Assembly (NCBI GenBank): GCA_032718475.1
Contig: JAUCBJ010004767.1
Span: 1 to 64,000, forward strand
Direction: 5' to 3'
Length of the DNA: 64,000 nt
Source of the DNA: Nemertoderma westbladi
Taxonomy: Eukaryota; Animalia; Xenacoelomorpha
How positions within the stretch are numbered: the first letter of the stretch is position 1; the number at the start of each line of letters is the position of its first letter. Of the stretch, positions 21,773-47,877 are shown piece after piece. Under the pieces are notes generated by a model. The model was not told the DNA's origin. It ran no database searches and worked only from the letters and a program-made list of their open reading frames with translations. The position numbers and the translations under genes were made by a program.

Positions 21773-24640
21773 TTAAGTATTTGTGACGTCATCAGGTAAG
21801 TCAATGGAGATTTTGGAAGGTTTTGATTTACTAGAAGGGCCCACGGGTCCGCCGGTAAGTATTCCCTTGTTGACTGTTGATCCGTCCGGGTCTACAAGTA
21901 ATTTGTCCTTCTTCGTCTTCTTACCTTGATTGTCAGTACTTTGTAAGTCGATCGTTAATGGTGGTTTGAACTCTATGGGGTCAGTGGGTTTCGGTAAACT
22001 TATTTTTCTGCCGACATTAATCCCGGGTCTCACCATAGGTTGCAAGTTTGGTATGTCTCTTGAGCGCAAAGTAACGCCTGTATTTACATTAGCGTAGGTA
22101 CTACCCACATCTGTAATACATGAGGTTTCACTGTGCTTATGGTCGCTCAAGTGTGTCAAAATTGGTAGTTTGTCAATACAAGGCCGCTCCAATAGGGAAA
22201 CTGCGGCTTTACTATTTGTCAATATGTCACTAGTGTCTGGTAGAACATTTTGTGACATGTCTGGTAAAATGTTTCGCGGAACATCCGGCGAAATATCTAG
22301 TGACGTGTCTGGCAAAACGTCTGGTTGACCGTCTAGTAACGTGTCTGGCGATACGTCTGGTAACGTATCTGGTTGTTTGTCAATAGAAGGCCGCTCCAAT
22401 AGGGAAACTGCGGCTTTACTGTTTGTCAATATGTCACTAGTGTCTGGTAGAACATTTTGTGATATGTCTGGCAAAATGTCTGGTTGGCTGTCTAGTAACG
22501 TGTCTGTTGGACCGTCTGGCGATATGTCTGGTGTAGAAAGGCTCGCAAGTCTTCCTCTCTTTACCTTTGAAGTTATATCTTTCCATTTCGCCTTCGGTTT
22601 TTTCTTGAGTTTTGCCGCCGTCGTCTTTTTCTTTGCCTTCCCCTTTTTTGGTTTCTTGATTTCGGCGTCCTTAGGGATGGTGTTAGACTTGTTGTCGTAT
22701 AACGGGGGCCAATCTTGTGTCGATTTCTGCAAGAATTGGGGTCCGTGTTGCCAAAATTCTTTGTTTTCCGGTTTACAGAATTCCTCAGGCATCATTCCTC
22801 ACGACGCAATATCGGCTGGGTTTTGTGGTCCGGGACAATGTCGCCAATCCTCTTTTATTGAACGGTCTAGAATTTCTGCGCGACGGTTAGCTACGAATGT
22901 CTTGAATTCAAGTGTGTCGTTATTTATGTAAAATAAAACCAACGTCGCGTCAGTCCAATAAAATATCTGTAAACTTGACTGTAGTTCTGTCTGTATAAGG
23001 TTTACGATGGTGGTTGACAGTGTTGCGGCTTGTAGCTCAGCTCGTGGTGTCGTCATATACTTAGTAGGCATTGTTTTTGCCTTGGAAGTAATGAGCGAAA
23101 CATCGAATTCTTCTGAGTCTACTTGTCTGCGCAAGTACGCTGCTACACCAAAACCGTTGTCACTGGCGTCAGAAAAACAATGTAGTTCCAAGTTGTCAGG
23201 AAATGTAGTTTGTAATGGAAAGTAGACTCTGGGTATGGAATAATCCTCTAGCGAAGATAATTCCGCCTCCCAGGTCTTCCATAAGTCCACTTGGTCTGAT
23301 GAGATCGGCTCGTCCCATGTCAGTCCATCCTTCCAAATACTGCGCATATAAATGCGGGCTTGCAGTATTACTGGACTGATGAATCCTAATGGATCGAAGA
23401 ATCGGCTCAATTTTGACAAGCATGATCTCTTTGTCAGTGTGTTCTCTTGACTGTCCAGTCTCACCTTCACTCGAAAGTTGTCCGTGTTTGGGTCCCAAAA
23501 GAGCCCCAACACCTTGGTCGTCGGTAGTGGTTCGAACTCTAGGTCTATGTCACCACCTCCACGCTCAGTCGTTCCGAATGAGTCTACTAATTCGGCACTG
23601 TTTGAGGCGAATTTGGTGAGGTTGAAACCTCCGCCCGCTAAGCAGTCCCGTAATTGATGTGCTACTGTTGTAGCACGTTCTACTGTGTCGCAACTCTGTA
23701 AGCCGTCGTCGACGTAAAAGTCACGCTCCACAATCCTAATTATCTCTGGGTCATACAGGTGTTTCTGATCCCTAGCGGCTTGTTTTAGGGCGTACATCGT
23801 GCAGTTTGGGCTGTCCCTGGCACCGAAAACGCGAACTTGCATTTGGTAAGTCGCCGGTGGTAGACTTAAGTCTCCTTCCGGGTACCAGAGGAACCGCAAA
23901 CTGTCTCTGTCTCGCTCTAACGCTCTCACTTGGTGAAACATCGCTTCAACGTCGCAAGTAAAAGCTACTTGACGCTGACGGAAGCGCATAATCACCCCCA
24001 TAAGATAATTATTCATGTTTGGTCCATCCATCAACTCGCTATTGAGGGACATTCCCTCAAACAGAGCCGCACAGTCATTGACTACACGTACTTTGTCTGG
24101 TTTGTCGGGGTGTCTCACGTAGTGATGTGGCAAGTAGTACGTCTGGTCAGTCACTATCTCTGGGTTAGTCATCCGGATAGCGTATCCCTTGGTCAAATAC
24201 GTCTCCATCTGAGTGTTGTACTGTAGATGGGCTTTCTCGTCCTTTAATAGACGTTGTCGGATTGAGTGTAGACGTCTTAAAGCTAGTGGGTAGTTATTTA
24301 TAAGTTTAGGACTTTGGCTACGCCATAACATCCCCACCTCATAATGTCCGTCTTTCGTCTGGCGGATAGTATCTTCCATGATCCTCAAAGATTGTTTCTC
24401 CTGTTCCGACATACATGGTTCGTAGCTACCAGGTTCAGCTGTATCTTGTTCTAACCACCTGATAGTCTTCTCCGTTAATTCTTTGTCCAATACAGCTTGT
24501 TCCAATTGATGATTTCTCAACGCGTCATCATCGATATCGACGGGCGTTGTTGAGGTTGTTGGGGTAGGTAGACTCGCAAGCCTTCCGGCGTTATCATCTG
24601 TCGTCGTTGGAATCTCTAGCTGACTCGTCTTCTCCCCAAG
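21773..24640 (-). pseudogene. Element B reverse transcriptase + RNase H + expanded linker, with in-frame stops
   Basis: YYLPHH, KVRVVND, DVEAMFHQV, FGARDSP, DFYVDD; FSDAS, PRAELQAA, WTDA, NPADIAS*G. Stops at 22799 and 21773. Linker carries a duplicated PDxSQNVLPDTSDILTNSKAAVSLLERP. Confidence 0.93.
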
Positions 24641-27610
24641 TTATAAACTCCGCTGGTGAATTAGCTGCTCCTTGTGACTTATCATACCAGTTACACGTCT
24701 GTCATGTTTTGTCGACTGTAGTGTAGTATGGTCCACGTCGTGTGAGAAGGAATGAATTGAATTTGTAGTTAATAAACTACATGTACTTTGTACATCGTCT
24801 TCCTCGTCACTTATGTACAGTGTGCGCACAGGCGCTCGAGTATACCACCCTATCGGCGTTCTACAGGCGTATGCGTTTCCCGCTACGACTGCCGATGGTC
24901 TGGTTTCCCACACTTGATGTAGGTTGAATTGGTCCGTCCCGATCAGCATGGCTACCGATCTATAATTGACAGGACATTCGGGTACACCAAGGTGTCTGAA
25001 ATACTTACGGTCCTCCAAGGATTGTTCTGGGACCGGACCTAGTAGGTTACTAAAGTCTTTGGTGGCCGCAAAAGTCAAATCCTTGAAGGGTAACAAAGAC
25101 CTCTCCCTCTCGCTGTGTTGCGATTTTGGAAGAAGAGAGTCTAAGTCCAACTTAACTCGTGTCACTGGTATTGCACGTTGCCCGTGCATACTACTTACGG
25201 TGTAACTGACGCGCTTACCTCGTTTGAGATCCGTCACTACGTCAGCTATCTTTTCATCCACGTAGCTGTGAGATGAGGCTGAATCCAGGATAGCGTAGAT
25301 TCTCTTGCTCCCCTTTGTGCCAGTAATCTTAATCGGAATTACACTGAATCCCTTTAGTTGGTCAGTAGTCAGAAGCGCGATCGATGGCTGTTCGTCTCCA
25401 TCAGAATATACGTCGTCATCTTCTGACTCTTCGTCCGACGATCCGGATTGTTCTGAGAAGCAATCCTCAATATGGGTCACGAAGGTTGGAGTCGTTTTCG
25501 ATTCTCGAATTTTGTAGGCCGCATTACATCTCGCTGCTGCTTCCGGGTGTTCCCTGGCGAAGCGTTTTGTCGGCGTGTGGCTGTCTGTGTGGAGCAGACC
25601 GTCGTGGTTGCGTCCACAGGATGGACAAGTGTCGGTATTTGGGCAATCTTTACGGACGTGTCCGTGTCGCGTACACCGCCAACAAGAGTCCAATGGCCGT
25701 ATCTGCAGCCGTCGTTCTTCCGAGTTTAACTCGCGAAACTGTCGACAACCTCTCAACTTGTGACCGATATACCGCTTGCCTAGATGCTCGCAGTATTGGC
25801 AGCCGCTGAAGTCGGTACTGAGTTGCTGTCTCGTCTGTTTTGTCCCAATGGGCGCAGATACTCTACTACCGTCCGAGAATTGTCGGGTTTCCGTCGATGT
25901 GGCGTATGTGGCCGTCTTGGTGGATGTTGTCTGGGGTTTTTGCCGGTTGGAGGATGGCAATGTGATTCCTTCTGCCACGATGTGCTGGTCAGTGTAGTTA
26001 GATCGAGTTTCTACTACTGCCTCCCTGGATATCAAAAGGTACACATCCTCCAGTTTTAAGAATCCACCCCGCTCTTCTCGCTGGTATTCGATCTTTCTCC
26101 ACTCCCGACGAAGTCGATGGTGGAGTCGTCCTATGATCTTTAATAGGACTGTAGGGGTATTCCCGTAGTCAAGTTGTCCAATGGATCTTAAAGTCGTGAT
26201 AGCGTTCTTTATCTCGTCGGCCAGTTTCAATAAGTCGACGGGTTTAGTAATAGCCCCTCCCTTACAGAGTTCCTCTATCACTGACCTGGCCATGCTGACT
26301 GTACCTCCGTATATCGAAGTTAAACGATCGTACGCTAGTTCGAAGGCGTCCGGTACACCAACGAAGGTCTCCGCCAAACGTTTAGGTTCTCCTGACAACG
26401 TTTGAAGCAGGTAATTAAACTTCTCCCGTGATGTAAAGGCGCACACGGCGATCTGAGATTCGATATAGTCTACGAAAGTGTGCCAGTGTTTTGAGCTACC
26501 GGAAAACTTCGGTGGTTGTTGCACCGGCAATCCTTGTCTGGCTGCGAATTTCGCTATTTCCTCGGCAACGTTCAGAGTTTCGCGTCCTTGGTTGGTAATC
26601 TGGTTGATATCCCTTCTTGGCGCTTTTCCCTGATATGCTGTGTGTTTTGAAGGTACCGGTCTTTGTGGTTCCTTCGGGTGTCTATTGTGTTCGAATTCAG
26701 TGTTCCTCGAACTATCGGTTTGAACTTCCTCCAGACGCTCCTCGATCTGAGCCAACTTGTTAACAACTGGTCGCATGATGTCGGCGAACTGTTGTGTACT
26801 GATTGCGTCCGTTGGTTGTAACGCCTTCTGTGTTGGTGTATTCTGTGGAGGATTGTCTACAAAGGAGTTGTCTGAACGCTCGCGTTTATATTCATCGGCC
26901 GCCCCTGTTCTAAATACCTCGCGTTTCGGGTAATCCGATTCGCTCGAAGTACTACTATCATCTGGATATGGTGGTCGACGTGCTCGCGTCCGTTGCGTCG
27001 TACGAATTCTAACGTTTCGTTTTGGAACATCATCCACTGGTCTCCGTTGTTCGGTAGGCTCACAAGTCTTCCTCGAAGTCGTAGATTGCGATGTGAACTG
27101 GTTGAACGGTCGCGTATCCACTGGTCTCCGTTGTTCGGTAGGCTCACAAGTCTTCCTCGAAGTCGTAGATTGCGATGTAAACTGGTTGAACGGTCGCGTA
27201 TCCACTGGTCTCCGTTGTTCGGTAGGCTCACAAGTCTTCCTCGAAGTCGTAGATTGCGATGTAAACTGAACCGGTGGTCGAATAACCGCTTTTGAATCAA
27301 CTGGCCTTGTAGGTCGAAACGTCATTGGGTAAGCGTAGTGTGTAACGGGTTTAGGTGTCGACGGTGGACTCACCTGTTTAGTCGTCAGTAGTGCAGGTCC
27401 AGTCAACAAACTACTACGATCTGTAATCGGTGGGTTACTTACCTTAACTTTCGGAATAGGCGACGACGTTGCTCTTGGCGGTGTAAACTTGTCCGGAATA
27501 ACAAACCTGTGTTCCGTCGCACCATGGATAGGAGAAATATTACTACTACCAGCAATCGAAACAGGTTCCTTAGTCGTAACATAGGAGTTACCTGAGGGAA
27601 TCTTTGACAT
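24641..27610 (-). CDS. Element B Gag + protease
   Basis: PKFSGSSKHW..F; CQYC..HKLRGC, CWRCTRHGHVRKDC and CPSCGRNHDGLLH; ILDSAS. In frame with RT across a single TAA. Confidence 0.9.
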   Translation of the reverse strand: MSKIPSGNSYVTTKEPVSIAGSSNISPIHGATEHRFVIPDKFTPPRATSSPIPKVKVSNPPITDRSSLLTGPALLTTKQVSPPSTPKPVTHYAYPMTFRPTRPVDSKAVIRPPVQFTSQSTTSRKTCEPTEQRRPVDTRPFNQFTSQSTTSRKTCEPTEQRRPVDTRPFNQFTSQSTTSRKTCEPTEQRRPVDDVPKRNVRIRTTQRTRARRPPYPDDSSTSSESDYPKREVFRTGAADEYKRERSDNSFVDNPPQNTPTQKALQPTDAISTQQFADIMRPVVNKLAQIEERLEEVQTDSSRNTEFEHNRHPKEPQRPVPSKHTAYQGKAPRRDINQITNQGRETLNVAEEIAKFAARQGLPVQQPPKFSGSSKHWHTFVDYIESQIAVCAFTSREKFNYLLQTLSGEPKRLAETFVGVPDAFELAYDRLTSIYGGTVSMARSVIEELCKGGAITKPVDLLKLADEIKNAITTLRSIGQLDYGNTPTVLLKIIGRLHHRLRREWRKIEYQREERGGFLKLEDVYLLISREAVVETRSNYTDQHIVAEGITLPSSNRQKPQTTSTKTATYATSTETRQFSDGSRVSAPIGTKQTRQQLSTDFSGCQYCEHLGKRYIGHKLRGCRQFRELNSEERRLQIRPLDSCWRCTRHGHVRKDCPNTDTCPSCGRNHDGLLHTDSHTPTKRFAREHPEAAARCNAAYKIRESKTTPTFVTHIEDCFSEQSGSSDEESEDDDVYSDGDEQPSIALLTTDQLKGFSVIPIKITGTKGSKRIYAILDSASSHSYVDEKIADVVTDLKRGKRVSYTVSSMHGQRAIPVTRVKLDLDSLLPKSQHSERERSLLPFKDLTFAATKDFSNLLGPVPEQSLEDRKYFRHLGVPECPVNYRSVAMLIGTDQFNLHQVWETRPSAVVAGNAYACRTPIGWYTRAPVRTLYISDEEDDVQSTCSLLTTNSIHSFSHDVDHTTLQSTKHDRRVTGMISHKEQLIHQRSL
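27030..27270. repeat. 84-bp in-frame tandem repeat, about 3 copies, in element B gag
   Basis: QFTSQSTTSRKTCEPTEQRRPVD three times. Confidence 0.95.
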
Positions 27611-29016
27611 AAGTCTTTAACTAATTGTCTTTCTCGCCCAGGTGCCCCTACACTTCCTTCCTTCATTCGTTCCTGAATTTGGCGATGTCTTACCTCTAGC
27701 TGGTCCAAATCATGTCCGTCACGAGATCTCATCGATCGATCGCGGGCTTGTAGATCCAGATCTTCCTTCGCGTTGGCTAATTCTCTCGCCTTCTTCCCGA
27801 GTTCGAAATGAAGTTTAACTTCCTTCTCGCGTTGTTCCGTCTGTTGTTGTTGCGCCTCGAACTCCGCTTGTCGTATAGCTGATTGAGCCTTTATTTGCCG
27901 TTTTTTCATCTCGGCTCTCGCTTCTGAAACTAATCTTTGTCGTTCTAGCTCGGCCGCTGCCGCTGCCGCCGCCGCTTGTCGCTCTAACTCAGCCGCTGTC
28001 GCTGCCGCCGTTTGTTGTGCAATGTCCAACTCTAACCTTTCCATCTCGGCTGCTTCCAACTCGGCTTGTTCTTGCAGATGAGAGATTCTTGCAACATTCG
28101 CAACCCGTAGTTTCTCTTCTTGTACTGCTGCTTGTGCCATTAGCAGTTGAGTTTGTTCCTCCATCTCCTGTTGTTGTCTGTAGAGTTGCTGTTGTCGAGC
28201 AGTTTCTGACGTAGCCATACTCACCTCGCCAATTTCGCTGCGAATACTCACCAGTGATTGATTTAGTGTTCCCGGTGCCAGTTCGATTTGTGCGAGTGAA
28301 GTTTCCCTCGTAGCCTCCGGCACGGTTTCCCAATCTCCGACGTCCTCGCCGCACATGCGTAAGTGATCCGTCAGGTGTTTCAATTGTCCATCTAGCCTGT
28401 ACAGTTCCTGTTCTTCCTCGGGTTGCAATAATTCGTCCGAAACTGACTCACCTAACAACTGGTCCGCTTGTTCCTGTTGTATCTGCCTAATCGTCGACTT
28501 AAACTGAATCAGTTTCTCTCTAGTGATCATTAGTTTCTCGAGGATTCTAAGCTGAGTGTCCATATCCTGTCTCTGTCTAGCTAGATCTTGTAGACCAATT
28601 AGGTTATCTACGGACTTATATACTTTACTCTGTACTCTCACCTGTAGAGTGTAGAACTCGAACCGAGACATCAGAGCGGTTAACTCATCTAATATGCGTT
28701 GGCCTTCTCCAATACTCCTGGTAATATGCGCCATGTAACCGCCGACGCTTCTAACTACGCTCTCCTGGCTTCCTACTGAACTTACCATCTCCGTTTCCCT
28801 GTATCTAGGTTGCGGGACCGTTAGGAAATCCTCAGTCCTGCCGTCGCCTCGTACTACGGCATCCGGTACTTCCGTTGGATGTACTGGTGACGCGCACGGT
28901 GTAGGTTCGGTAGGCTCACGAGTCTTCCCCTGTGGTTCTTCCGCTTCTGACTTATCTCCGTCACATGAGTCATAGTCGGTTTGTGTATTTTTCGTATAGT
29001 CTTGTTTGTCACTCAT
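27439..29016 (-). CDS. Element B N-terminal coiled-coil ORF (Gag N-terminus or separate ORF0)
   Basis: 525-aa Glu/Gln/Ala-rich helical ORF overlapping the gag ORF in another frame; same position as the coiled-coil N-terminus of A and C. Confidence 0.75.
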   Translation of the reverse strand: MSDKQDYTKNTQTDYDSCDGDKSEAEEPQGKTREPTEPTPCASPVHPTEVPDAVVRGDGRTEDFLTVPQPRYRETEMVSSVGSQESVVRSVGGYMAHITRSIGEGQRILDELTALMSRFEFYTLQVRVQSKVYKSVDNLIGLQDLARQRQDMDTQLRILEKLMITREKLIQFKSTIRQIQQEQADQLLGESVSDELLQPEEEQELYRLDGQLKHLTDHLRMCGEDVGDWETVPEATRETSLAQIELAPGTLNQSLVSIRSEIGEVSMATSETARQQQLYRQQQEMEEQTQLLMAQAAVQEEKLRVANVARISHLQEQAELEAAEMERLELDIAQQTAAATAAELERQAAAAAAAAELERQRLVSEARAEMKKRQIKAQSAIRQAEFEAQQQQTEQREKEVKLHFELGKKARELANAKEDLDLQARDRSMRSRDGHDLDQLEVRHRQIQERMKEGSVGAPGRERQLVKDLCQRFPQVTPMLRLRNLFRLLVVVIFLLSMVRRNTGLLFRTSLHRQEQRRRLFRKLR

Positions 29017-29100
29017 TTCGGTAGTTGTAAGTCAAGTAAAATGTGAGTGTCAAAGTATCAAACTTACCGTATTTATCTAAACGGTACTAATTACAGTCAT

Positions 29101-29815: not shown

Positions 29816-29826
29816 CACATTCCTAC
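29816..29826 (-). promoter_or_regulatory. Element B primer-binding position, complementary to its own LTR rather than to a tRNA 3' end
   Basis: Sense GTAGGAATGTG abuts the 5' LTR. Sense CACATTCCTAC occurs in the LTR at 30857-30867 and 16297-16307. Confidence 0.8.
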
Positions 29827-31722
29827 TATTGGAAGAGACGGTAACAATACCTGCAATATCCTACTGTAAAGTTTGTGAATCAAATCATAAATCCGACCTT
29901 CTCACCAAAACAGTAAACTCTAAGTAAGCGAATATATTGCAGTATCGATCTCTTATAACCGGTGAGGCAGAAAACAGTCTACGAGCAGACAAACTTCGAT
30001 AAAACAAAAATCCCGCGCAGCGAATCCTAAAATCAGGCTGACTCACTGACGGACTAAGGGGCTCGTATACTTTGCCGCGGTGTGATTTATATGGTTGGGC
30101 AAAGAGACGCTAGCTAGGTACAGAGGCAGAGATTTGGAGATGTCTAACTAGCGGGCAAAAGCACAGTACGGACAAAAGTTAATTTTATATATTTTGAGGT
30201 GTAAATAATTTCTAACGCGCGTGTGTTAATTCTGAACGGTCAAAAGCAGTTTTGCTCCTTCACATATATAATTACTGGGTACGGTGTGCATTTTACGAAT
30301 ATTCTAATTTTGTAACTTGTAGGTCCAATACTCACGAATGATAAGGTTCCTTCCCCTCTTGCGTATTTCCAGGACTCAAATTCAGGCATAAGGTTAATGC
30401 TACGCCCAGAATTCGGCAATTTTAGGTACCAGGTCCCTGATACTAAGAAGAGATGTGTTAGTTTACTACAGTAGGCGTACAGTTACTAATAGCTATCCTG
30501 GCTCTTATCTGGAATTTTAGTCACCTAGGTAGGCTGGGTAACTTCCTATCAGGACGTTGGCGGGGACACGGTAGATGTTAGTATATCCCTAATAGCCTCA
30601 ATTTATTTGCGCCTAGTTGTAAACTGCCCTACCGCCTGAACGGTACAATCCCAATTCAGGTGAAAACACAGCAACCCTCCTAGCCTACAAGTTCTAATGC
30701 AATGGACACCGTTGTACTGCAAATAGTCGCAAACGCACCTGTACTTAGCAAGAGTTAGGCGTACAGTTTGCTGCACCCTACCAATTTGTATGCTGCGTAC
30801 CGGTGTGCCTACGTCCTATCTGCGTACTAGTATCTGCCTGCTCTCCCCCCCCCCCCGTAGGAATGTGAAGGTCTACTGTGGTTTTTCCTGAATCAAGACA
30901 GTACAGTCCCTAAGATGTAATTTTAGGCTCACAGCGTGTCACTACTTCTACCTTTTGATCTTTGGTCTTACGCTTAGGTAGCAAGGCGTCGAACGCTGTC
31001 TAACCTTTCAGGCGATGGGCGAATAACTCAAGATGGTATTGCGGGTTGTCTCTTGTCTACATTCCCGTGATGTTCCCGTTCATTGCTGCGGCCCGATCTC
31101 TAGCCGGCCATCCTGTCCTTAGCTGGGTTCACCGTAGTGAATCATGGTGAAAGAAAAGCAGATAGCGGTATTTCTGAATTTATTGCAGATAATAATACAA
31201 AATGTAATCTGAATACTAATAACAGAATAAACAAATATCAGATAACTCAGAATAATTGAATATAGAGATAGATTAAGATTGATAACTAATGAACAAATCG
31301 CACCTTTATATAGCAAATTTGTGCTGCAATCAATCGAGAAAATTCTCGATTGTTCTATAGGTTCTAACAGGTTTTTAAAGATAGCTATTGGTCCAGCTAA
31401 TATATAACTTGCACGACATTGGTTACAATCAAATAACTACAGTCTCATTGGTACAGACAAATGCAATTAATTTGTAGCGGTCAATTTAAATGAGTTGAAA
31501 TTCTGCACAAAAAATAATTCGCACTTACTAGGATTCGAACTCAATACCTACTACACATATAATTTCCAACGCTCTACCGACTGAGCTACTGAACCACTTG
31601 ACCAATAGGCGTACAAATGATAGAACAAATACGAATGAGAACTCAAAGCAATCTTTTACAAAGTTAATTCGAATAAAATAAAATTTTGAAAATCCACGGC
31701 ATTTAGAGAATATAATTCTATA
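29827..31722 (-). repeat. Element B 5' LTR (1896 bp), ends TATAG...CAATA
   Basis: By eye it differs from the 3' LTR by one substitution and the poly-C tract. Confidence 0.95.
31280..31451 (-). promoter_or_regulatory. Putative Pol II promoter in the element B LTR
   Basis: Three CCAAT boxes about 30 bp apart (31447, 31418, 31387), TATATAAA (31305-31312), then Inr-like TCATTAGTT. Confidence 0.6.
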
Positions 31723-33057
31723 CAAGTATTATTGGTAGGCAGAGTATTAGGAATGCAAAGTTCAGATCCTCGTGTCTCGGCTAAACCAAGCTCTGGGTAG
31801 ACCTTGGAAACGACTTGCCTCTTCACACTGACATTGCTTCGTGCGATATTGCTCTCATACCGTATATTAAATAATACATATAGTAGCGTGATGTCCCTTT
31901 AACAGTAGCGTATAACGCAAAATAAATCTGTTAAACCCTTTGACCATCTGCAATTCTAGTCGATTAAGATATCGCGGCACCCACCAATATACTTGAAAGA
32001 CAAATTTTAGAATCAGTGGTTAACGTCCCCAGACAAGTTCTGGAATAAATTGATGCCCATCTCAAATATTAATTATTTAATATTTGCAAATCTAATAAAT
32101 CAAAATCTGTAAAATTCAGATCCTTCAACAATTCTAGTCAATTAAGATATCGTAGCATTTACTGATATTCTTAAAAAGACAATTGTCATAGAATTAAGGA
32201 TCTTCTGTCCCCAGACATATTCTAGAATCAAAATATGTCCATTTAATTATTAAATAATAAAATTTCAGGGAATAATTTAAATTCATGCCTTTTAATGAAT
32301 TTAATAAATTGCCATTTTTACGCAATTTATAACATTCCCAAAATTCCATTAATTAATAGATCACGGGAGCGGAGATTTATCTTATCATGCGTATGAGTGT
32401 GCGAAAGTCTCCCAAACATAGTCAATAGCCGATAAAATTCATAAAGTCATGTATAAAACAGGACATTGACCATTAAAGAATTACTATTAAATAACATCCC
32501 AGATCTGTATGCATTGGAATTACCCTAATTCTACCGCTAGCTTTGCATAATGTCACCATAGCAACAACCACGCTAGAATTAGAATTGAGTTAAAAGAACA
32601 ATAGAAAGCTTGTCCCATTGAATAGCATAGGGAATAAATAGCGCACTGCTAGTATCCAAGGATACATAATAATACAGTGACATTCTGGAAGGCATTGACT
32701 AACGGACAAATGGCCCGAGTGTGTGTAATTTGTGACAAGTTGTGTGTGGTATTTGTGAGTTTATAGGCGAATGTTACTACTAAGGTGTGTTTACAGTAGC
32801 GAGTCGCAATTGTGAAAGTAACCCTAACTCTCCAGTAAGAACCTGAGGTGTATTTAAGCCTTTGGGACGGACAGTCGAGTGACTTGTGCCGGTTGTCGTT
32901 GTCGTTGTGCGGCTACGTCGTTGGCGAAAGTACAGCGGCGACGACACATCGGCGCTGAGGATCTCGCACTGTCCGGGGGCTGATTGGGGTAGGCAGCGAC
33001 GCTCGCTAGCCTAAATATAAACTCCTTATAATATGGATAAACTCATATATAGCAGAT

Positions 33058-34225
33058 ATGACGGAGTTGATAGAAGATGGTCTTGGTATCGGGGAGTGAT
33101 ATACTCTACTTTTACAAGCGTTTGTTGATAGCTTAATACGCGGCGACGTTAGTCCAACTGCTGCGGAGGACGATGGTCGTTATATCGAACCGCCAATGTC
33201 CCAAGAGCAGCTCACGCGTGAGTTGGACTATAGAAAATTCGCTGCTCGATATACGCAGCGTAATGGTACGTATATGGGCTTCTTAACTACTGGTCATCCT
33301 ATCGATTTACACAATACGGACTATGTCGACTATATATCCTGCCCAGCGGAGTCGGAACCATAAACTGAAATTCGAATGCGAAAATTCTATTCGAAATCGA
33401 CTCGAAAGAAAAGACACTAAAGAAACAAATGGACGCGGTAACTCCAACGTATATTTGGAATTCTTGATAGAAGCATTGTAACAACAAATAAATATCACCC
33501 GCGTTTCCCCTACCAGACGTGCGTCTTTGGTATTATTACGATAAATGCCCTAGACCCAGCCAATAAACGGAAAGACATAAACATCCACGGAAACGTTGTT
33601 TTAAACACAGTCGTACTCGTTATATTTACTGGAGTTTCGAGCGAAACTTGTTTGACGTATCACCTATGCTCACTCGGCTCGAACGATCCTGGAGTAAACC
33701 TACGATCAGAGTCCCGGAATACTCGGTCAAACCTCCTCATTCCTTAGTTGGACCTCAGACCTGCGATCCTGGTGGTGTCGCGGATCCTCGCGGACTGTAT
33801 TCACTGTTCAAAGATCTAGTGCTACCCTAACAATTAATCGGTAACACTCCGACAGTGATTTCTAGCTAGCCGCCCATCTTACCTAGCCGGATTGTGACGC
33901 GGACACCTAATATCACTATCCCACCGTATGGTCGTCCCCGTTTAACGCGATACAACCCTTCATCAAGGTGAAGGAGAGCGTTGTACGAAACGAGTTAAAC
34001 GCTATTCTATAAAGATCAAAAAAGAAACCTGCGTTTGTTCAGATAAACGTAAGTTATAACAGTAAGTCCAATCGATAAACGAATTGGCCTTATCTCAGTT
34101 CGATTGGGAAATCTCGAATCTCTAAGAAGATATCAAGCTTAGAAAACCCTATTCTCTGCGAGAGTTTTGGACGAACGTATCCCATGACAAGCGGAGGAAA
34201 ATCAGCTCGAGGAGAAACATATTGA
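33058..34225 (+). pseudogene. Decayed accessory ORF in the 3' region of element A (counterpart in C about 46518-47640)
   Basis: MTELIEDGLGIGE*YTLLLQAFVDSLIRGD... Some stops in A are sense codons in C (TGA/CGA, TAA/CAA). No recognisable family. Confidence 0.45.
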
Positions 34226-34467
34226 AACGGCGGATACCCCGACTATAATCCCACGCCTTCTGATGCAATCATATTGCACCCTTCACCCAGGAGTTATAGC
34301 CCTCCTTGTAAAGTGGCTCGCCCCAAAGAGAAAAGACTCTTGCTAGCTTTAAAAAACTGCGTAAACGCCGTCTGCGCAAGAAAGACTAACTGTTTAGAGT
34401 ATTCTCGTATTTTAGAAACTGTGATTTTGTATATTTTATAGACTTAAATCCCATTTTCTGGGAGCGG

Positions 34468-35659
34468 TGTAAAAGCTTTTGTGGGATAACTGATTCGTTT
34501 GCTTTGCTAACCAGTTCCCCCCAAGGCGCTGGAATACTCTAAAAGGGATCTCTAGCTCGAATAGTGCAAGCTACCGGCTGATTGGCTGATTTGCTGTACG
34601 AAGGGATCTGGGCTATGTTCGATCGTCCAACCAGCTTGGGAAGGTTGCCCCACAGCCCTGCTTTCTGTACCTGCCAATAGGATTTGAGTTGGTTTGGATT
34701 TCGACCTATCACAGATCTACTGAACTGAATTTTCCTATCTGTATGCTCATTCTCTGTGGTGGGTGGAAGCCTTTGTAAATAAGGTTATTCTTATCAGTTT
34801 TTAGTGTGTTATCATTCAGTCCTGAGCCAAGGAAGAACGGCTTTGGAGTATTTTTGTGCTTTTCTGCTTTAGCCTTACACTAGTAGGCTTAATTATAAGG
34901 ACATATATCCGTTATCAAACCAACTGGGTAACTCAATGTTATCTGCACTGGTTAACACTAGTTAACTGGCCCATACTGTGCAACTTAACTTAACATTACT
35001 GCTTTGCTGTCGGTTATTCATTATATTTGTTGATGAATTATTATATTTGGAATAACGAGAAATAATCCCGAAACCCAATATTCTTGATATACCGAAGGTA
35101 AGAGAGAAGGGTTACATATAACAATTGTGACTTATGTTAAAGTGGTTTGAAGTGAATCTAATGTTATTTGATAGACCCTACATGAGTCGGTCTGTGTTCC
35201 TTTTATATGTGACTAAAATCAGTGAAGATCGGCAGATTAGTGTGCAGTATTGTGCAGCATTGTGTATGAGTGAGACTGATAACGAAGCATTTCCTAAAGA
35301 ATGCGCCATATATGTGAATTGTAACTAAGCCATATCGTTGTGAGTAGTTTAAGTCATAACTCTGTTTATATAGATAGAGCGCCACGTCCTAAAGGAACTG
35401 TTAATATTTCCCGAAGGTGAATAATATTGTCAGAGATTATATAATACTGTCAGTCGAATAATACATTAGGCTTACATAGCAATACGATTAAGCTGTCGAA
35501 ATCAATCTCCCGGGTATATCCAACGGGTGAATGATCGCGCACAGATTAGTTTCAACTAGTGTAGTGAATCAAATACTTGTTAGAGGCTAAAGCGATTTAT
35601 TATCTAGAAGACATCCTAATTTGGCGGGTTAAACTGCCAAAGGTCTGAAAGCGCGAACA
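34468..35659 (+). repeat. Element A 3' LTR (1192 bp, TG...CA)
   Basis: Follows the PPT-like tract; starts TGTAAAAGC and ends GCGCGAACA like the C LTR; the 3' about 700 bp align with the C LTR. Confidence 0.88.
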
Positions 35660-35989
35660 TATGGCGAAACACTTTAACATGCCCCATACAGCCATATCTG
35701 CCTGCATATTGCTCTATTGCCCTGATTGCCAGCTGGATACAGCGAAGTTTATTACTTTATTATACCCAGACGATGAAGGAAGATGGGAAGGTGGGTGGGA
35801 AGGTGGGAGGGAATCAATAAACGATGTTGTTACATTCCAATTGAAGGAAAAGAGTAGGTTACAGCGACGGCAATTTCTAACCAAAACAATAAACGATGTT
35901 GTTGACAATTTTCACCCACCGCCGAAAAATACAAGTTTCAGAATTCTTATGCAATTTTTACATATTCCATTGAATTCAGAACCCTCATA

Positions 35990-36192
35990 AATGCTGACAT
36001 GGGCAGAAACTCCAGTACTCATTTAGCTACCATTTAAGGATACAAGAGATGCCTCGCGCCGAACCCTTCACTTCAAAGCATTCGTGACGAGACGAAAACT
36101 ACCATGGCCCCCATGCTGCCATGCCGGGGTTGAACCCACACCACAACCTCCGTGAGATGTGAATTCAATATAACCACTACACCAAGGTGGGC
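35990..36192 (-). mobile_element. tRNA-derived SINE-like element
   Basis: Minus strand has A box TGGTGTAGTGG and B box GGTTCAACCCC followed by a non-tRNA body. 3' boundary approximate. Confidence 0.6.
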
Positions 36193-36213
36193 TCTGAACC
36201 AAGGTGGAACAAG

Positions 36214-37268
36214 ACGAGGCGTTAAAGTCTATACAAATCAATCCAGGTTTCAGCCAATCACAAAGGAGATGACGTAGGCCTATTACAACCGAATGTGGAT
36301 TGATTTGTATGGGCTTTAATGACCACCCACGTTCTGTTAGAATCTATGCATTTCAATTTTTTTACTCATAATTTAAATTATAAGTTCAAGTCAACTGTAT
36401 AGGCTATATGAAAGGATATGAAAAATCTTTGTTAGACACTCTCATACTTGTTCTACATTATTATAATTATAGATACATATGTTATGATTATAGTAAATTA
36501 ACAGGTTAATCATACAGTAGCAAACCATTATCTGAAAGCCGCAGAACATTTAATCATACGTACAGTATAAAATGTACAGTCAGATACAGTCAGTAATGCG
36601 TAATCATGATCGCGGCCCGGTCCAATTACAACCGGCTGCAATCGATTGAGATATGCAGACATACTATTTTGTTCCATGTTAGTCGGTCTTAGGTATTTCT
36701 TCTTTTTTCTAATTTGTTTTTTTCGCGTTGTGTACAATTGCCGTCGGATTGAGGAAATTCGGCGGTTCTGGGTGATAATTCGTTTATTATTAGGCGACTT
36801 TGTGAGTAGTGGTAATCGATGTGTTAAGGATTTTATAATGTTGTCAATGGCATTGTGAGCCATTATAATTTATTGCTGTGCGTAATTTTCGGGTTGTGCA
36901 ATAAAGCATTCAGTTTGTTCAGACGAGGCAGGGGGTACCCTACCTCCTTAGACGTAGACATGGCGGAGGTAGCCTCCCAGAACTGTTTAGGGATTCCAGA
37001 ATCTTCTTAGACCATCTTCCATCTAAGACCAGAAATTTCAGAAATTTAAGACCGTTCTAAGACCATCTTACTTACTTTAGTACTATTATGGGAAATAGTA
37101 GTGGGAAAGCAGTATTTAAATGAAAATAATTGAAATGTATAGATTCTAACAGGGGTGGTCATTAAAGTCTATACAAATCAATCCACATTCATTTGTAATA
37201 GGCCCTACGTCATCTCCTTTGTGATTGGCTGAAACCCGGATTGATTTGTATAGACTTTAACGCCTCTT
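36214..37268. mobile_element. Non-autonomous Mutator-like DNA transposon
   Basis: About 140-bp TIRs (GAGGCGTTAAAGTCTATACAAATCAATCC...) and a 9-bp TSD TGGAACAAG at 36205-36213 and 37269-37277. Confidence 0.85.
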
Positions 37269-37381
37269 TGGAACAAGTGTCAGATACAGTCAGATCAGAT
37301 CAGATAACAGGATACTGGGATAAGGACAGACGTTTTAGCCATCCTAGTTTTGATGGAGTAACTTTTTCAAAATAACACCAG

Positions 37382-38557
37382 TGTAAAGGCTTTTGCGTAA
37401 TTAGCCGGTTATTTTCCCCGTGAAGTACTCTGTAGTTGGTTTACCAGGCATAAAAGGGCCGTGTCCTTACTGTACTGGTGTTTTAGAGGACATAAAAGTA
37501 ATTTCTTCTGTATGTGTACTTTAGCGGACATAATCCGCAATTCCATGACGCAAAAGCCGAAATACTCTTGGAACAGTGTAGTTACTAAGACGACAGCTAA
37601 TAGCTGAGCTGTACACGTGGAGCCTCTGCACGGAGCCTTGGTTCTTTGTTCTGCTCAGCTCAAATGACGACATCTATCAGCTGTGTCCACGTCAGTTCGA
37701 CCAATCAGAGATTTTCCCTTTGTGTAAAAGCTGTACAGCAGAATCCCATGATTCAGTACTGACGTTTCCCCCACGCCTAAGAACACCGGCCGTGGAATGT
37801 TTTCTAACATTAGAGCGTCTTTAATTATAAGATCATCAAACTGTTATCTTGGTCAACTTGGTTAAGTACACTTGCATTATTTACTGCTATTTACTGTGTT
37901 GTTAATTGTATCATTCGTTTGCATATTATTAATTGGAGAATATTGATAAACGATCAGAAACCCCAATCTTCTTGATACACTAAGGTTAGAGAGACCGGTT
38001 ACATATAACAATTTGCGACATACATTATCGTGGTTTGTAATGAGTTCAATGCTACTTAATAGGCCCTACAAATGTCGGTTGTTGTTCTCTTTATATATGA
38101 TTAAAATCAGTGAATATCGGCAATTCAATGTGCAGTTGTGTGCAATAGTCTGTGTGTGTTTGACCGAGTAACAAAGCATTTCCTAAAGAATGCACTTTGG
38201 TGATCTATAAGACATACCGTTGTGTATAGTGTAAGTCATAGCTCTGTTTAAATAGATAGAGCGCCACGTCCTAAAGGAACTGCTAATATTTCCCGAAAGT
38301 GAATAATATTCGTCAGAGATTATATATTAACGATCAATCGAATAGTACGGTAGGCCTGCACCACAATCAAATTAAAGCATCCAAATCCAGTCTCCCGGGT
38401 ATATCCAGCGGGTGAATGGTCACGCACAGACTGGCTTTGGCTAATGTTAGAATTATTATAGGTGTTCAATACTTGTCATAGGCTGGAGTAGATTTATAAC
38501 CTAGAAGACATATCGATTTGGCGGGTTAAACTGCCAAAGGTCTTAAAAGCGCGAACA
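37382..38557 (+). repeat. Element C 5' LTR
   Basis: Direct repeat of 47878-49053. Confidence 0.96.
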
Positions 38558-38568
38558 ATAACAGTTTG
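38558..38568 (+). promoter_or_regulatory. Element C primer-binding position, complementary to its own LTR
   Basis: ATAACAGTTTG abuts the LTR. CAAACTGTTAT occurs at 37837-37847 and 48333-48343. Confidence 0.8.
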
Positions 38569-38919
38569 TAAATTCTTGATTGCAGTGTAGGCAATAAATA
38601 CAGTTTAATATTGTTCTGGTAAGAACAATAACAGTTTGAAGGATCTTGATTGCGGCGTAAGCGATCAAGACTAAAGTACCGGTCGACCGGTAACCAGTAG
38701 GCCTGACTGCCTGATCATCAAGACCGGTACTTACAACAGTACAGGTACAACAGTATTATTCGATTTTGATAATTATATACCGGTAGGTCTTGATATTAAA
38801 TCTGGGACTGCAGCCCTGGTTTTTTATTGGGATTTTTACTTATTTCTGTCAGTTTTATTTACTAGTAGGCTAATATTGAGCAGAAGGCGTGTAACCCTGC
38901 TCAGATTGTTCAGATAATT

Positions 38920-39460: not shown

Positions 39461-40811
39461 GTACGGGTAGCGTAATATTTATTATTCAGAGTTTATGCGA
39501 TTATTCGCAACATTCATATCCCTAAGTTTATTCCTACAGTAATTGTGCTTGTTATATATACCGTTATAGTTAAATTAACCCCGGTACTACACGGGCTGCT
39601 TGGCGTAGGTAAAGACTGGTGATTTTGTGCACCGGTCACTCCAGCAGATGCCGTGGTTCTTTTAGCTGTTCAAGTATTTTTAACTACTGATTATTTGTTG
39701 TACCAGTACTTGTACCTAATTTAGGGTTTAGTGTACAGTGCTTTCCGAGGGTAATTAGTGTGTAGGCAGTATATTTGTGTTGTAAAGTGGTTAATAGGCA
39801 CGTTGGTTCTGGTAGACCGCGGTAATTAACTTCTAGGTAGGGACACTCCGTGATACATAACGTAGTACCTATAGCGATACGGCTATAGGTCGTCAGACGG
39901 TGGTATTTTCCTATCTGGACAACACAGTGTATTTACTACTACTTATTATTTTCAAATACCGTAGTATCCTGTCCGTTGTAATAACCAGAAAATCTAACCC
40001 TCTGTTAGACTGGTTTGTAGTTCCCTGTAAAATTACCCTAAAATTTCGTACGTAATATTTTGTTGTGTTTAATTAGAGATTTAATCTCACCCGTATCGTA
40101 AGTAATTCGTAGATAAGTAACTTAGGAAGTAGGATTATTTGTATTAGTGTCCAATAAGTAGCACTTCACTGAGAGCGTACAGCTTCGGTGTAGTGACTCC
40201 TTCCCAGAAATAATAACATCTATTTCAATATTGTAACAAAAACCCCTCATACGGGTATATATAACATAAATCAATCCAAATCTATTAATAAAATAGTAGG
40301 CCTGTCATACAATCCTTAGGTCTTAATATCAGTTGGACTACTGCTCAAATAACGGTAATAAAGTAAGTAAAGTAACCAAGTAACCCCTAACATTCAGAAA
40401 TTCAATTATTTTAAAATAATTGACATACCAGTATTTACAATAGGCTTATTATATTTATTCTATAAATTTAGGCTGAAATCATACCGGTATTCTGTATTTA
40501 ATTCTAGTCTGTAATAATTATACTTATATATACTATAAGTGTCAGCTGTATACCGGTATTCACGATAGGCCTATTATATATTTATATATATTTGTGCTAA
40601 AATTATATACCGGTACTCTGTGACAAATCTAGTCTGTAATAATACTTATATATATACTATAAGCATACCGGTATTCTAATATATTATATATATATCACGC
40701 TACACTGAGTAGCAGTATTGGTAATTAATTATTAGGCTAACAGTGATACTGAATTGCTAGACTTACTTTAACTGTATTTATAGCCGTAGGCATTCAACTG
40801 TGTAAACAAAC

Positions 40812-43800
40812 ATGTCAGACGCAACCCAATCACTGTCAGATAGTCTCTTAGAAAGTGTTAGAATGAGTATTAGACTTAGACAGCGTATTAAAAGGATCTG
40901 TGACCAAGATCCAAGTATAGAACATCCTAGATCCAAGTCTAAGTCACCTACTATTGTAAAAAAGGCCATCCCTACAGTAGTAGTGTCAGACCCTAGGCTA
41001 GTAGAACAACGTAGGTCTATCATCGGCACTCGGGCCCAAGTCAAGCGGGATCAAGAAGCAGCTATCAAACAGCAGCAACCTCCTAGCCAAGAACCTAGTT
41101 CTCAGTGGCCCGATAGCTCCAGTAGTTCGGATACTGTTGAGCGGATGCCAGAACTCAGAGCGAAGATGGCGGATACGGTTTATGATGAGCGGCCAACCTT
41201 TGAAGAATCAACCGACGCCACTTCTTCTCAAGAAGAAAGCGAAGTGACAGCGGGGGAGCCGCGAAAGAGAGACGCTATTGATATTTATCTGTCAGACTAT
41301 CAGCGATTCCTAGGAGACGAAGAGTTGAGGAGACGACTGTCTGGACTTCGCCCTAATAGTGAAGGAACCAAGCTTGTGTTGGACGCAATCGATGCGGAAA
41401 TGTTAGCTGCAAACCAAGCTAAATTTGATGAAAAACTCCGCCTCGCTAGAGTCCAGGAAGAACAAGTAAAGAAAAGACGGATAGAGGACCGAAAGGCAGC
41501 AGCAGTAGCAGCGGCAATGGCAGAAGCAGAATCAGCAAAAGCAGCAGCAGCAAAGGCAGTGGCAGAAGCAGAACAGAGAGCGTCTGAGGAGACTACCCAA
41601 CTGGAGTTGGAAAATCTGCAAGAGACGCAAGACTGCATAAATAAACAGTTAGCTGCTAGTCAAATGCAGATGATGAGTCGATCTACTCCCAAACGCCAAG
41701 AATACACAACATCGGAAGAAGGCGAGACCACCGATCCTGAAGGCGGAGGAAATAGATCTCGTCTAAGCAGGCGTAGAAAAACATCTCACCGTCACAAATT
41801 GCCTGATTTGCCCCCAGCTGTTAGAAGACAACTAGCTAGCACAGATTTAAGTAGTACAGAACCCACAGACCAAATTATTAAGGTCAAAAGACTCCCTACG
41901 ATAGTCGATGAGCTTGAAATAATTAGGCCTGTCGTTCCCAAAGCCACTCCAGTGCTAGAGACCCCTGTACTTCCAGAGCTTAACTCTAAATCCCCTTTAC
42001 ACAGTACTACACTGCCTGTACCCGGTAGAACAGTCCATGAGAATATCCCTGTCCTGGACGCTGAGAGAGAAATCAAAGATTTGTCTCCCGTCGTCCCGCG
42101 TCTGCCCGCTACAATGTTGGTGACTCCCGCTTCGGCGGTCGAGTGGGTAGAGGAGGGACGGCGGGGGATGAACCTCCTGCTCGGACAGATGCAGGAGACT
42201 GTCCACCAACTCAAGGGAACATTAAGGGAAAGTAGGGTAGAATTGCAAGAAGTGCAGCAAAGCATCGCGCTAGAACGCGACAAATTAGTCAATATACAAA
42301 AGGGTATACCAATACCCCCTGTAACATTGTGTCAACCTGTTAGGTCTGAAGTATTACATGCGCAAGGTGTGGAGCCTACACGCATCTATACTGCTAGTGA
42401 AGTAGAAACTCCTATAGCAAACCCTATTAAGGGTGATTATGAACCTGTTGTTAATGATATTCCCTATAGACCTGATAATAATCCGAGAAATCTATATACC
42501 GATAATTCGATATTAAATAATACGATGGCCCAAGAAAGCTTTACGCGTCAGATGGCTAGAACAGAAGCCCGCCAAGCGGTCAAAGTGGGAGAAATCGTCA
42601 AATTCAATGGAGATGAGATGAAATGGTTACCTTTCAATGAATATTACAAAGATAGCATACAGAACTCTGTACTATCTAACGGAGAGAAACTTAGATTTCT
42701 CATCAAGTGCTTGGAAGGACCTCCCAAGTTAATGGTGTTAAAGTTTATTGGACATCCAGATGGATTAAGACAAGTTTGGGATACATTAAACATCAGGTAT
42801 GGTAACAAGGATAATATAGCTAAGTATTTGTATGCAAAATTAGTAGCCCCCTGAAAGTTCCTTAGTAGCGGGATTATAGAGTTTTCCGATGAGATTCAGG
42901 AGATCTGTAGACAATTGGATTGGTTAGGTAAGTCTCATGAATATCAGAGTTCCATGGTTATTGGAGCCGTAGTCTCTACTTTACCAAAGGGTGGAGTATG
43001 TACACGCTGGGACAAGAAAGTGTTGTATATGAATGAGCAGCAACGACGAGGCCCTACCATGGCTGATCCCATGTCCTTCTTAGATAGTGAAGTAAAATTA
43101 CAACTCATAAAGCAGTCCAGAGAGAAAACATTGGAAAATAAGGTAAGTGAGAAACCCGTTTCTAGGAGAAGGGTAACACCAGTGTGTTATACTGACGACG
43201 GCGAAAGCCAAGCTTCTCAAGAAGAGGACAGCGGGAAAGACACAGCAAAATCTTACTATGACAACAAGACCTATAAAGACGTAAGTAAATATAAGTCTCG
43301 AACCAGTGACAGGAGAGAACAGGTAACAACAACTCCTCCTACGTCTCCTAAGAGAATTCACGGAAGAAAGCCCAAAGAAAGAACGAGAGTGCATAACGTT
43401 ACCCAAGGTAAAGTGAGTAACATCAAACCAAAATGTGCGCTGTGCGACGGGCCCCAACGTTTGAGTGTGTGTGCTGAATTCCTAAAGAAATCCCTGGTAG
43501 ACAGACGTGAAGTCATGTGGGATAAGCGGTTATGCTATAATTGCCTCAGACAAGGACACCAACGGCGAACCTGTTACTCCGACGTAAAGTGTGCAAAGTG
43601 CGGTGCGAAACATCACATCTTGTTACACAGTGAATTCGAACGAAACAACCCGAGTCAGGTAAGTGAGCCCGAACTACATGTCCAATTCAGTGATGTAAAT
43701 GACACTGATCAAGAATCTGAGATGGAAGGATTCTATACGGACGAATTCTCCGACGCCAACGAATCCTGTTACCTAATAAATACCGCAGTGTATCGAGCAC

Positions 43801-47800: not shown

Positions 47801-47877
47801 TGTTTAGAGTATTTTTATATTTTAGAAACTGTGATTTGTTATATTTTATAGACTTAAATCCCATTTTCTGGGAGCGG

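Follow-up and report, generated by a model that had tools for sequence, protein, structure and literature searches.

Elements of the Bel/Pao superfamily are described as starting reverse transcription on a host tRNA. According to the ICTV profile of the Belpaoviridae, the priming site is 18 nt long and complementary to the 3' end of tRNA-Arg or tRNA-Gly, the LTRs measure 0.2-1.2 kb and the genomes 4.2-10 kb; the profile presents their tRNA-primed replication as poorly understood (PMC8742986). The stretch of Nemertoderma westbladi DNA analysed here, called the window (contig JAUCBJ010004767.1, positions 1 to 64,000; 64,000 nt), contains two such elements, B and C, and neither carries the 18-nt tRNA-Arg or tRNA-Gly site. 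Which RNA, then, primes them? B and C are Bel/Pao elements devoid of a tRNA-type site, in which the 11 nt following the 5' LTR are exactly complementary to a segment of the element's own LTR, and we consider it likely that their own RNA starts reverse transcription.

Elements B, C and A and the pairing next to the LTR

Element B is a full-length Bel/Pao copy carrying stops (Table 1). Its LTRs are 99.7% identical and end TAT...ATA, not TG...CA, and the target duplication ACTTG flanks the element at both ends. B has gag followed by PR-RT-RH-IN with Bel/Pao-type domains, including DUF1759, Peptidase_A17 (E 3e-43) and an integrase 3' of RNase H. Its gag-pol is broken by in-frame stops at 24641, 22799, 21773 and 20720 and shows a frame change near 27440-27616; among its named homologues are sequences of cnidarians, echinoderms, a nemertean and fish, besides others.

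In element C, the two LTR copies differ by 5 substitutions and the target duplication is ACCAG. C is not coding-intact: its pol is reduced to the end of RNase H, and neither RT nor integrase was detected in it. Judging from this coding content C is non-autonomous, and its signals would serve with enzymes supplied in trans. RT and integrase were not detected in element A either; A and C both have a DUF1759 gag, and their placement in Bel/Pao therefore relies on gag and on what is left of RNase H. Direct LTRs, a 5-bp target duplication and a purine tract abutting the 3' LTR were found in both B and C. The window elements have LTRs, a purine tract, the gag-PR-RT-RH-IN order, Peptidase_A17 and DUF1759 in common with the Belpaoviridae. 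B (LTR 1.9 kb, element 16.5 kb) exceeds the LTR and genome sizes given for that family, a range that is descriptive and no phylogenetic criterion; the LTR of C is 1.18 kb and the whole element 11.7 kb.

Table 1. Positions in the window of the features of elements B, A and C.
Feature	Position	Strand	Remarks
B 3' LTR	15264..17162	-	purine tract GGAGCGG (17169-17163) directly before
B gag-pol	20265..29031	-	DUF1759 gag, protease region, RT-RNase H (Peptidase_A17), integrase
B putative primer-binding position	29816..29826	-	11 nt, no TGG, zero spacer after LTR
B 5' LTR	29827..31722	-	1,896 bp, ends TAT...ATA
B predicted self-primer end	30857..30867	-	exact complement of 29826-29816
B best TATA-like box	31303..31312	-	candidate from motif scan
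B tRNA-like unit in U3	31509..31596	-	tRNA-type A box (31588-31571), B box (31540-31531), T6 run; stems degenerate
A 3' LTR	34468..35659	+	sister family of C; 5' end of A outside window
C 5' LTR	37382..38557	+	1,176 bp, TGT...ACA
C candidate promoter	37701..37757	+	CCAAT, TATA-like, TCAGT Inr-like; motif scan
C predicted self-primer end	37837..37847	+	exact complement of 38558-38568
C putative primer-binding position	38558..38568	+	11 nt, no TGG, zero spacer
C second, diverged copy of LTR end and same 11-nt site	38623..38671	+	site 38628-38638
C gag and protease region	40806..44867	+	end of RNase H alone remains
C 3' LTR	47878..49053	+	purine tract GGGAGCGG directly before

Immediately 3' of the 5' LTR stand GTAGGAATGTG in B and ATAACAGTTTG in C. 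As the earlier note had reported, each has an exact complement on the sense strand of its LTR (11 Watson-Crick pairs at offset 0 in both elements), and a site for a tRNA 3' end is missing, TGG being absent from the first 8 nt past both LTRs. The complement of B is repeated in its 3' LTR (16307-16297), and the G run after its 11-mer is predicted to pair with the LTR end. A match at offset 0 was reached by 3/10,000 dinucleotide shuffles of the LTR for B and by 10/10,000 for C; among the internal positions of the element itself, 15 of 12,612 in B and 7 of 9,268 in C reached 11 bp. When the rule was at its laxest, admitting offsets 0-4 and both spliced and contiguous matches, 5/272 control windows for B and 3/272 for C reached 11; a chance of about 1-2% therefore applies to each element alone, and chance is far from accounting for the two together. 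Upstream extension of the duplex was rejected as evidence, since random LTR pieces equalled it in 1,472/1,808 cases for B and 873/1,088 for the first site of C; with the second site of C, 55/1,088 pieces matched it.

This second copy of the LTR end and site is apparently missing from some other copies of C, where contig joints skip 35 or 66 nt. The segment of A aligned to the C 11-mer (34905-34915) starts with AT and keeps the last five letters of that 11-mer; these persist in one further contig variant as well, in a region that otherwise aligns poorly. The t|CA start earlier thought to be shared is thus lost in family A, and the starts vary among relatives. Contigs from four sequencing runs were compared over 34400-38700; of the differences between them, the best-supported 40 of the 377 in letters and 24 of the 1,143 at loose ends did not include the site, and they say nothing about covariation.

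The earlier note's suspicion that the primer comes from inside the transcript, and does not form its first 11 nt, is probably right: promoter-like motifs lie 80-445 nt upstream in B and C, and the junction-TATA distances in relatives (below) point the same way. The 11-mer of C lies about 80 nt past an Inr-like TCAGT that aligns in A at 34794, and that of B 445 nt downstream of the best TATA-like box, with CCAAT motifs at 31451, 31422 and 31391. AATAAA occurs in B after the 11-mer (30607) and before it (31184). The latter signal looks good and lies between the best TATA and the 11-mer; were it used, the 3' R would stop short of the cut, and strand transfer could not succeed. The first ATTAAA after the C primer is missing in A. 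In folding predictions, the core of the B duplex paired with p 0.85-1.0 for 5' ends 0-150 nt upstream and was not predicted (p 0.0) for a TATA-based start. The AT-rich C duplex was not predicted with the first site copy alone; this first site was predicted in a local hairpin (0.98), and the 11-mer was predicted to pair with the second copy (0.64).

A complement across a predicted intron in related elements

Twelve relatives have a fixed LTR end; the count drops 17 of 29 terminal-repeat loci, in which the repeat stops before the LTR end. In eight of the 12, a perfect complement of 10-15 bp exists solely across a GT-AG junction in the LTR; one has a contiguous complement, two an imperfect one and one none. 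The same test found a complement at 31 of 3,808 control positions. In none of 12 relatives (11 and L024) did the first 8 nt that follow the LTR contain TGG. In a blind search of 66 loci, an ACA or ATA end lay 0-4 nt before 17/18 matches at real junctions, vs 2/29 at decoy splice sites. The intron in the LTR of these relatives is a predicted one, and a complement existing only across the junction had been missed at first.

The pairing is kept while the letters differ, as the earlier note had claimed: 14 different sites occur among 17 related elements. The elements being kin, none of the counts from relatives is independent. The sisters L034 and L053 (SH-aLRT 99) have 15 perfect pairs each and differ from each other at 5 of the 15 positions. 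A duplex of exactly 11 bp, in contrast, is no conserved feature, given the 10-15 bp of the relatives. The site starts with GT or AT in 16 of the 17, and likewise in B and C. In 12 elements whose purine tract ends GG, the gap between duplex and LTR end mirrors that between tract and LTR start (0/0 in L044, B and C, non-zero on both sides in nine), a symmetry expected if the duplex marks the cDNA end. It is broken in four elements with a GAGCCA tract, and in several relatives the perfect run ends 2-4 nt before the LTR end. The junction lies 36-207 nt downstream of TATA in the five related families with a recognisable TATA, and AATAAA or ATTAAA occurs at most 100 nt past the acceptor in 17/21 loci (a raw, uncontrolled count). 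The pairing predicted in the relatives is the strongest evidence for self-priming and far outweighs what B and C show by themselves.

No relatives of these elements were found among viral contigs. In RT trees built without named reference elements (BEL, Pao, Tas, Suzu, Sinbad, Dan, Flow), B falls inside a group (SH-aLRT 98) that contains all 20 junction-type elements of the tree. B stands there in an open fork with the junction-type element L004, and intron loss in B is not settled by the tree. A splice junction improving the pairing was sought in B and C, and none was found; the top candidate in B used a weak donor within the tRNA-like unit.

Candidate primers

We infer priming, cutting and RNA ends in B and C from the sequence, and propose the following course. 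By folding back, a capped 5' stretch of the transcript that measures tens to hundreds of nt would bring its final 10-15 nt into pairing with the site. A single cut at the duplex's 3' edge, the probable work of the element's RNase H as in Tf1, would free a 3'-OH. RT would then copy from the LTR end to the cut and jump to the 3' R, which would have to reach beyond the cut. In the relatives the primer would be assembled by splicing; the uninterrupted form of B and C would mean that the intron was lost, or never present.

Self-priming is known from Tf1, where the primer is the first 11 bases, within a three-duplex 'pretzel', and acts in cis (PMC7175516; bioRxiv 10.1101/2022.12.06.519325; available parts of both). 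According to these parts, Tf1 and Tf2 of Schizosaccharomyces pombe and the Tf1/sushi group likewise have no tRNA site and a 5' LTR RNA complementary to the LTR-adjacent site, and the 11 bp of B and C equal the length in Tf1. However, the Tf1/sushi elements are Ty3/gypsy chromoviruses, whereas the enzymes of B match Pao-type Pfam families and Bel/Pao homologues (the far end of the integrase lay outside any chromodomain scan). The primer of B and C likely ends a longer 5' fragment instead of being the first 11 bases, and in most of their relatives the complement spans a predicted intron. The pretzel was not recovered: B has one candidate inner helix (4/50 controls were as strong), C has none, and both flanking duplexes were found together in none of nine relatives. 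Of the earlier proposal, the absence of a tRNA site, the conserved pairing and self-priming as the best reading are supported; no support was obtained for Tf1-like parallels in the t|CA start, the first 11 nt or the three duplexes.

Self-priming has been proposed for TAR, Houba and Osr-1 (in Ty1/copia) and Tcn1 (in Ty3/gypsy) of plants from a 5' LTR complement of at least 10 bp placed 0-5 nt past the LTR (PMC6317226, available part), which is the arrangement of B and C. Those elements belong to other superfamilies and hosts, and the available part of that source does not mention a splice-built primer. The fungal GalEa Copia elements likewise replaced the tRNA site with a self-complementary element beside the LTR, the Conserved Hairpin Site; in the available part of its description, the two arms both stand past the LTR with 12-41 bp between them and show sequence conservation, whereas in B and C one arm is within the LTR and the letters are family-specific (PMC5445492).

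The selected pairing might instead be a structural switch (in packaging, translation or the choice of spliced RNA), the true primer being a host RNA, for instance a tRNA half, that displaces it; we regard this as unlikely. Half-tRNA priming exists in Copia lineages (PMC6317226, available part), and in elements of the Osser, Bryco and Bianca type the site matches a host tRNA's 5' half by complementarity. Perfect runs that stop before the LTR end, as in some relatives, would fit a host primer. So would the tRNA-like unit of the B U3, present also in the B 3' LTR, as no other part of the LTR pairs better than its 5' end with the 17 nt past the site; however, 7/60 control 17-mers pair as well. This unit was not called by ARAGORN at default settings, which found no tRNA genes in the window, and it gave no match in an Rfam scan of 29500-39200, like the rest of that region; 226 calls by relaxed ARAGORN were discarded as noise. 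A Cer element of C. elegans reportedly encodes its own tRNA-like primer. The 3' ends of the window 11-mers loosely fit an anticodon-loop pattern, but without the A usual after such anticodons, and the A segment lacks the conserved U. Each of the different sites of the relatives is matched by the element's own LTR, and a host primer would have to change per family.

Improbable to a similar degree is an LTR-derived primer acting in trans, a short or spliced RNA that would come from a solo LTR, from a 3' LTR or from a copy packaged together with the genome, would end or be cut at the duplex and would prime an uncut genome. It would explain why the intron is kept in the DNA of the relatives, and neither poly(A) nor folding would then pose a difficulty in B and C; contigs matching LTRs of the A/C family are very numerous (18,904 records in one run, which is not a copy number). 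Nevertheless, most relatives already have a workable geometry in cis, a poly(A)-like signal following soon after the acceptor, and Tf1, the known case, acts in cis (PMC7175516, available part). That the matches in B and C, relatives aside, are coincidence is very improbable: the LTRs are long, some control windows reach 11 bp under the laxest rule and the C duplex, rich in AT, is missing from the folding prediction made with the first site, but both matches lie at offset 0, neither element has a TGG site, both sites start as those of the relatives do, and the last five letters of the C site persist in A and one variant where the region is otherwise poorly alignable.

Probable self-priming in the Bel/Pao superfamily

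So far, self-priming by an element's own RNA is documented in Tf1, and some gypsy and copia lineages are predicted to use it; no report of it in Bel/Pao was found in the literature searched. Self-primed elements would be overlooked or wrongly trimmed by annotation tools for which a tRNA site is mandatory. The predicted junction, cut site and strong-stop end are within reach of ordinary RNA sequencing.

A wider reading is tentative, and we doubt it slightly more than we trust it. A large group of Bel/Pao elements of aquatic animals would have dropped tRNA priming, and the spliceosome would join two LTR exons into the primer, so that splicing gates reverse transcription, and the intron would persist in the DNA by way of the unspliced 3' R. 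B and C would be descendants that lost the intron and have the primer ready-made; the two long cellular genes of the host in the window are also uninterrupted. If self-priming in Bel/Pao is true, it arose in all three superfamilies, and these elements would be independent of host tRNA ends and without the target site of 3'-tRNA fragments. With a primer assembled by splicing, the onset of reverse transcription would be tied in a new way to RNA processing by the host.

Bel/Pao elements of the window and their LTR complements

Self-comparison revealed three related Bel/Pao pieces, A, B and C (table). The coding sequence of element B, interrupted by four in-frame stops and one frame change, comprises a gag with DUF1759, a protease region, an RT-RNase H that matches Peptidase_A17 strongly, and an integrase; the B LTRs differ by two substitutions and by 3 nt in the length of a G run. 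In C, pol is reduced to a protease region and the RNase H end. A and C together (9937-35659, 37382-49053) carry neither RT nor integrase and lack most of RNase H; the C LTRs are near-identical, and the A/C family, which was matched by very many contigs in the sequencing runs, is a successful non-autonomous Bel/Pao family. A purine tract adjoins the 3' LTR directly in both B and C.

Features of the window
Feature	Position	Strand	Remarks
Element B	31722-15264	minus	LTRs 1,896/1,899 bp; 5-bp target duplication; ends TAT...ATA
B site; complement	29826-29816; 30867-30857	minus	
B tRNA-like unit, 5' LTR	31596-31509	minus	in U3; tRNA-type A box, B box 48 nt further on, T6 run; stems degenerate
B tRNA-like unit, 3' LTR	17036-16949		second copy
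B low-complexity insert	21773-22798		long; in pol, between RNase H and integrase
B extra frame	17878-19446	minus	522 aa, after integrase; Cys/His knuckle-like repeats; no Pfam match
Element A	3' LTR 34468-35659		sister of C; B inserted within A; 5' end absent from the window
Element C	37382-49053	plus	LTRs 1,176 bp, five substitutions between them; own target duplication
C site; complement	38558-38568; 37837-37847	plus	
C tandem duplication	38553-38671		LTR end and site; contigs of two runs omit 35 or 66 nt here
Near-copy of C site	38005-38015		10/11, inside the LTR, ~160 nt after the 11-mer; mostly retained in A
Transposase-like frame	89-928	minus	at window start; recognised by eye; no Pfam match
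Pentamer tandem array	4520-4650		
LINE-type endonuclease-RT element	7083-9868	plus	adjoins truncated 5' end of A
Inverted repeats	36216-37266		~150 bp, 91% alike, cores 925 nt apart, between A and C; probably a small DNA transposon
Abl-interactor gene	53501-55165	plus	Abi_HHR to SH3; homologue-like length; single uninterrupted frame
WD40 gene	59376-62693	minus	1,105 aa; single uninterrupted frame

The earlier note had described, directly behind the 5' LTRs of B and C, 11 nt complementary to the LTR itself. Both sites read as it gave them, and each LTR holds one exact sense-strand complement (the 11-mer). Dinucleotide shuffles reproduced a complement at offset 0, that is, starting at the first base after the LTR, in 3/10,000 cases for B and 10/10,000 for C. 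Internal positions of the same elements reached 11 bp in 15/12,612 (B) and 7/9,268 (C) cases, and under a laxer rule the chance rate was 1-2% per element (B 5/272, C 3/272). It is very improbable that the matches in B and C are a coincidence; the complement feature is real and part of a wider pattern. The A and C LTRs align poorly in U3, yet an island around the 11-mer is conserved with its last five letters, which are also retained in one contig variant of run X3, a sequencing run compared with the window. The 't|CA' start shared by B and C was not upheld as a family feature, as the A segment starts with AT. The near-copy of the C site is possibly a competing partner, or possibly due to chance.

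The A+B box pairs in the B U3 are the sole such pairs in the window; the unit may be a captured tRNA/SINE head, a Pol III promoter or an insulator. The 17 nt after the B site have their best LTR partner in the 5' end of this unit, with a strength within chance (7/60). The Abl-interactor and WD40 genes each occupy one frame, so the host may be intron-poor.

Predicted splice-joined complements in related elements

An alignment of the B RT-RNase H with 24 homologues, which found no relative among viral contigs, identified 79 loci in metagenome contigs (best 80 of 545 matches confirmed; 13 of 64 collection parts covered). A terminal repeat was present in 29 loci and fixed the LTR end in 12; in L021, L032 and L051 the LTR end was set by the contig end at ACA/ATA, and the two LTRs of L003 share only 74% identity. 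The B LTR runs from TAT (31722) to ATA (29827); the LTRs of several relatives (L003, L024, L031, L032, L051, L074) start with TGT but end with ATA, not ACA.

Contiguous complements were mostly short in the relatives, but they started directly after pyrimidine-rich AG sites. Joining a GT donor to an AG acceptor inside the LTR created a perfect 10-15-bp complement in 8/12 relatives, and one of the 12 (L003) has a contiguous complement, of 11 bp. L032 and L074 have imperfect contiguous duplexes, equalled in 1/68 and 3/68 controls, and L051 has no complement, joined or contiguous. Control positions gave at least 10 bp in 31/3,808 cases. The donor is GTAAG in six relatives, and the predicted introns measure 67-329 nt. 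The 17 tabulated elements have 14 different sites, each paired by its own LTR, and the sisters L034 and L053 both keep 15 perfect pairs despite differences at 5 positions. A GT or AT start is common to 16/17 relative sites and to B and C. No splice junction bettering the B or C pairing was found in their LTRs; B and C are therefore the uninterrupted form.

Junction-spanning complements 40-400 nt past an acceptor were also searched for without use of LTR ends, in the 66 loci with sufficient upstream DNA. ACA or ATA lay within 0-4 nt before the match in 17/18 real-junction matches (16 loci), versus 2/29 with six decoy splice-site sets, both in loci owning a real junction; the Fisher p of 1e-9 is overstated, because the elements are kin and near-copies are included (L024/L025, L049/L050, L061/L071, L018/L044). 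In an RT tree built from 50 of 96 rows, B sits in a basal open fork of an SH-aLRT 98 group, beside L004, which is junction-type (complement only across a predicted GT-AG joint); every junction-type element in the tree, 20 in total, belongs to this group. Intron loss in the B lineage would be a plausible history.

Probable self-priming and its alternatives

The complements and their location are observed, as is their reliance on GT-AG joints among the relatives, and self-priming in cis is their probable explanation. Transcription would begin upstream of the primer segment; in relatives the LTR RNA would be spliced, and it would then fold onto the site. A single RNase H cut at the duplex edge would be followed by extension and by transfer to a 3' R reaching beyond the cut, which in relatives would retain the intron.

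Among 12 elements with GG-ending purine tracts, the tract-to-LTR gap is zero exactly where the LTR-to-duplex gap is zero (L044, B, C), and both gaps are non-zero in the remaining nine (4/4 in L031, 3/3 in L034, 2/2 in L004); four GAGCCA-tract elements break this symmetry when the tract is ended at the last G. AATAAA or ATTAAA occurs at most 100 nt after the acceptor in 17/21 loci, a count with no control set, and such a signal would leave an overlap for strand transfer. Gap symmetry and the position of the poly(A)-like signal are signs that the duplex may mark the cDNA end. In five families the donor is 36-207 nt away from the TATA box, which suggests a primer that usually forms the end of a longer 5' fragment. 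In L004 (6627-6745) the donor lies just 36 nt past the TATA box; exon 1 would then measure <10 nt, and splicing would place the primer at the extreme 5' end of the RNA, as in Tf1.

Three observations are difficulties for self-priming: the B AATAAA (31184) lies between the best TATA and the 11-mer; RNA folding predicts the B duplex with 5' ends at most 150 nt upstream and not with a start based on the best TATA; and the first C site copy is predicted inside a local hairpin, the 11-mer pairing with the second copy. An LTR-derived primer acting in trans is unlikely, and a structural role of the pairing, with a host primer, is similarly doubtful. Bel/Pao elements have an 18-nt site for tRNA-Arg or tRNA-Gly according to the ICTV profile (PMC8742986); TGG followed the LTR in 0/12 relatives with a fixed LTR end.

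Tf1 primes with its first 11 bases, which RNase H cleavage sets free (PMC7175516); they form part of a structure of three duplexes (10.1101/2022.12.06.519325). Self-priming has also been predicted in Tcn1 and TAR/Houba/Osr-1 (PMC6317226), and a hairpin replaces the site in fungal GalEa (PMC5445492). The Tf1 pretzel structure was not found in B or C, and upstream extension of their duplexes was no better than random. By term counts, the Sinbad paper (PMC554778) and the BEL/Pao survey (PMC3118150) do not mention PBS or tRNA, and PMC3601003, PMC8220671, PMC6934838 and PMC9873768, searched likewise by term, add nothing on Bel/Pao priming. No report of self-priming or splice-built primers in Bel/Pao was found in the literature covered, most subscription journals and Repbase reports lying outside it. 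B and C most likely resemble Tf1 in their working, yet they are outside the Tf1/sushi group. The most surprising part is the predicted splice-built primer.
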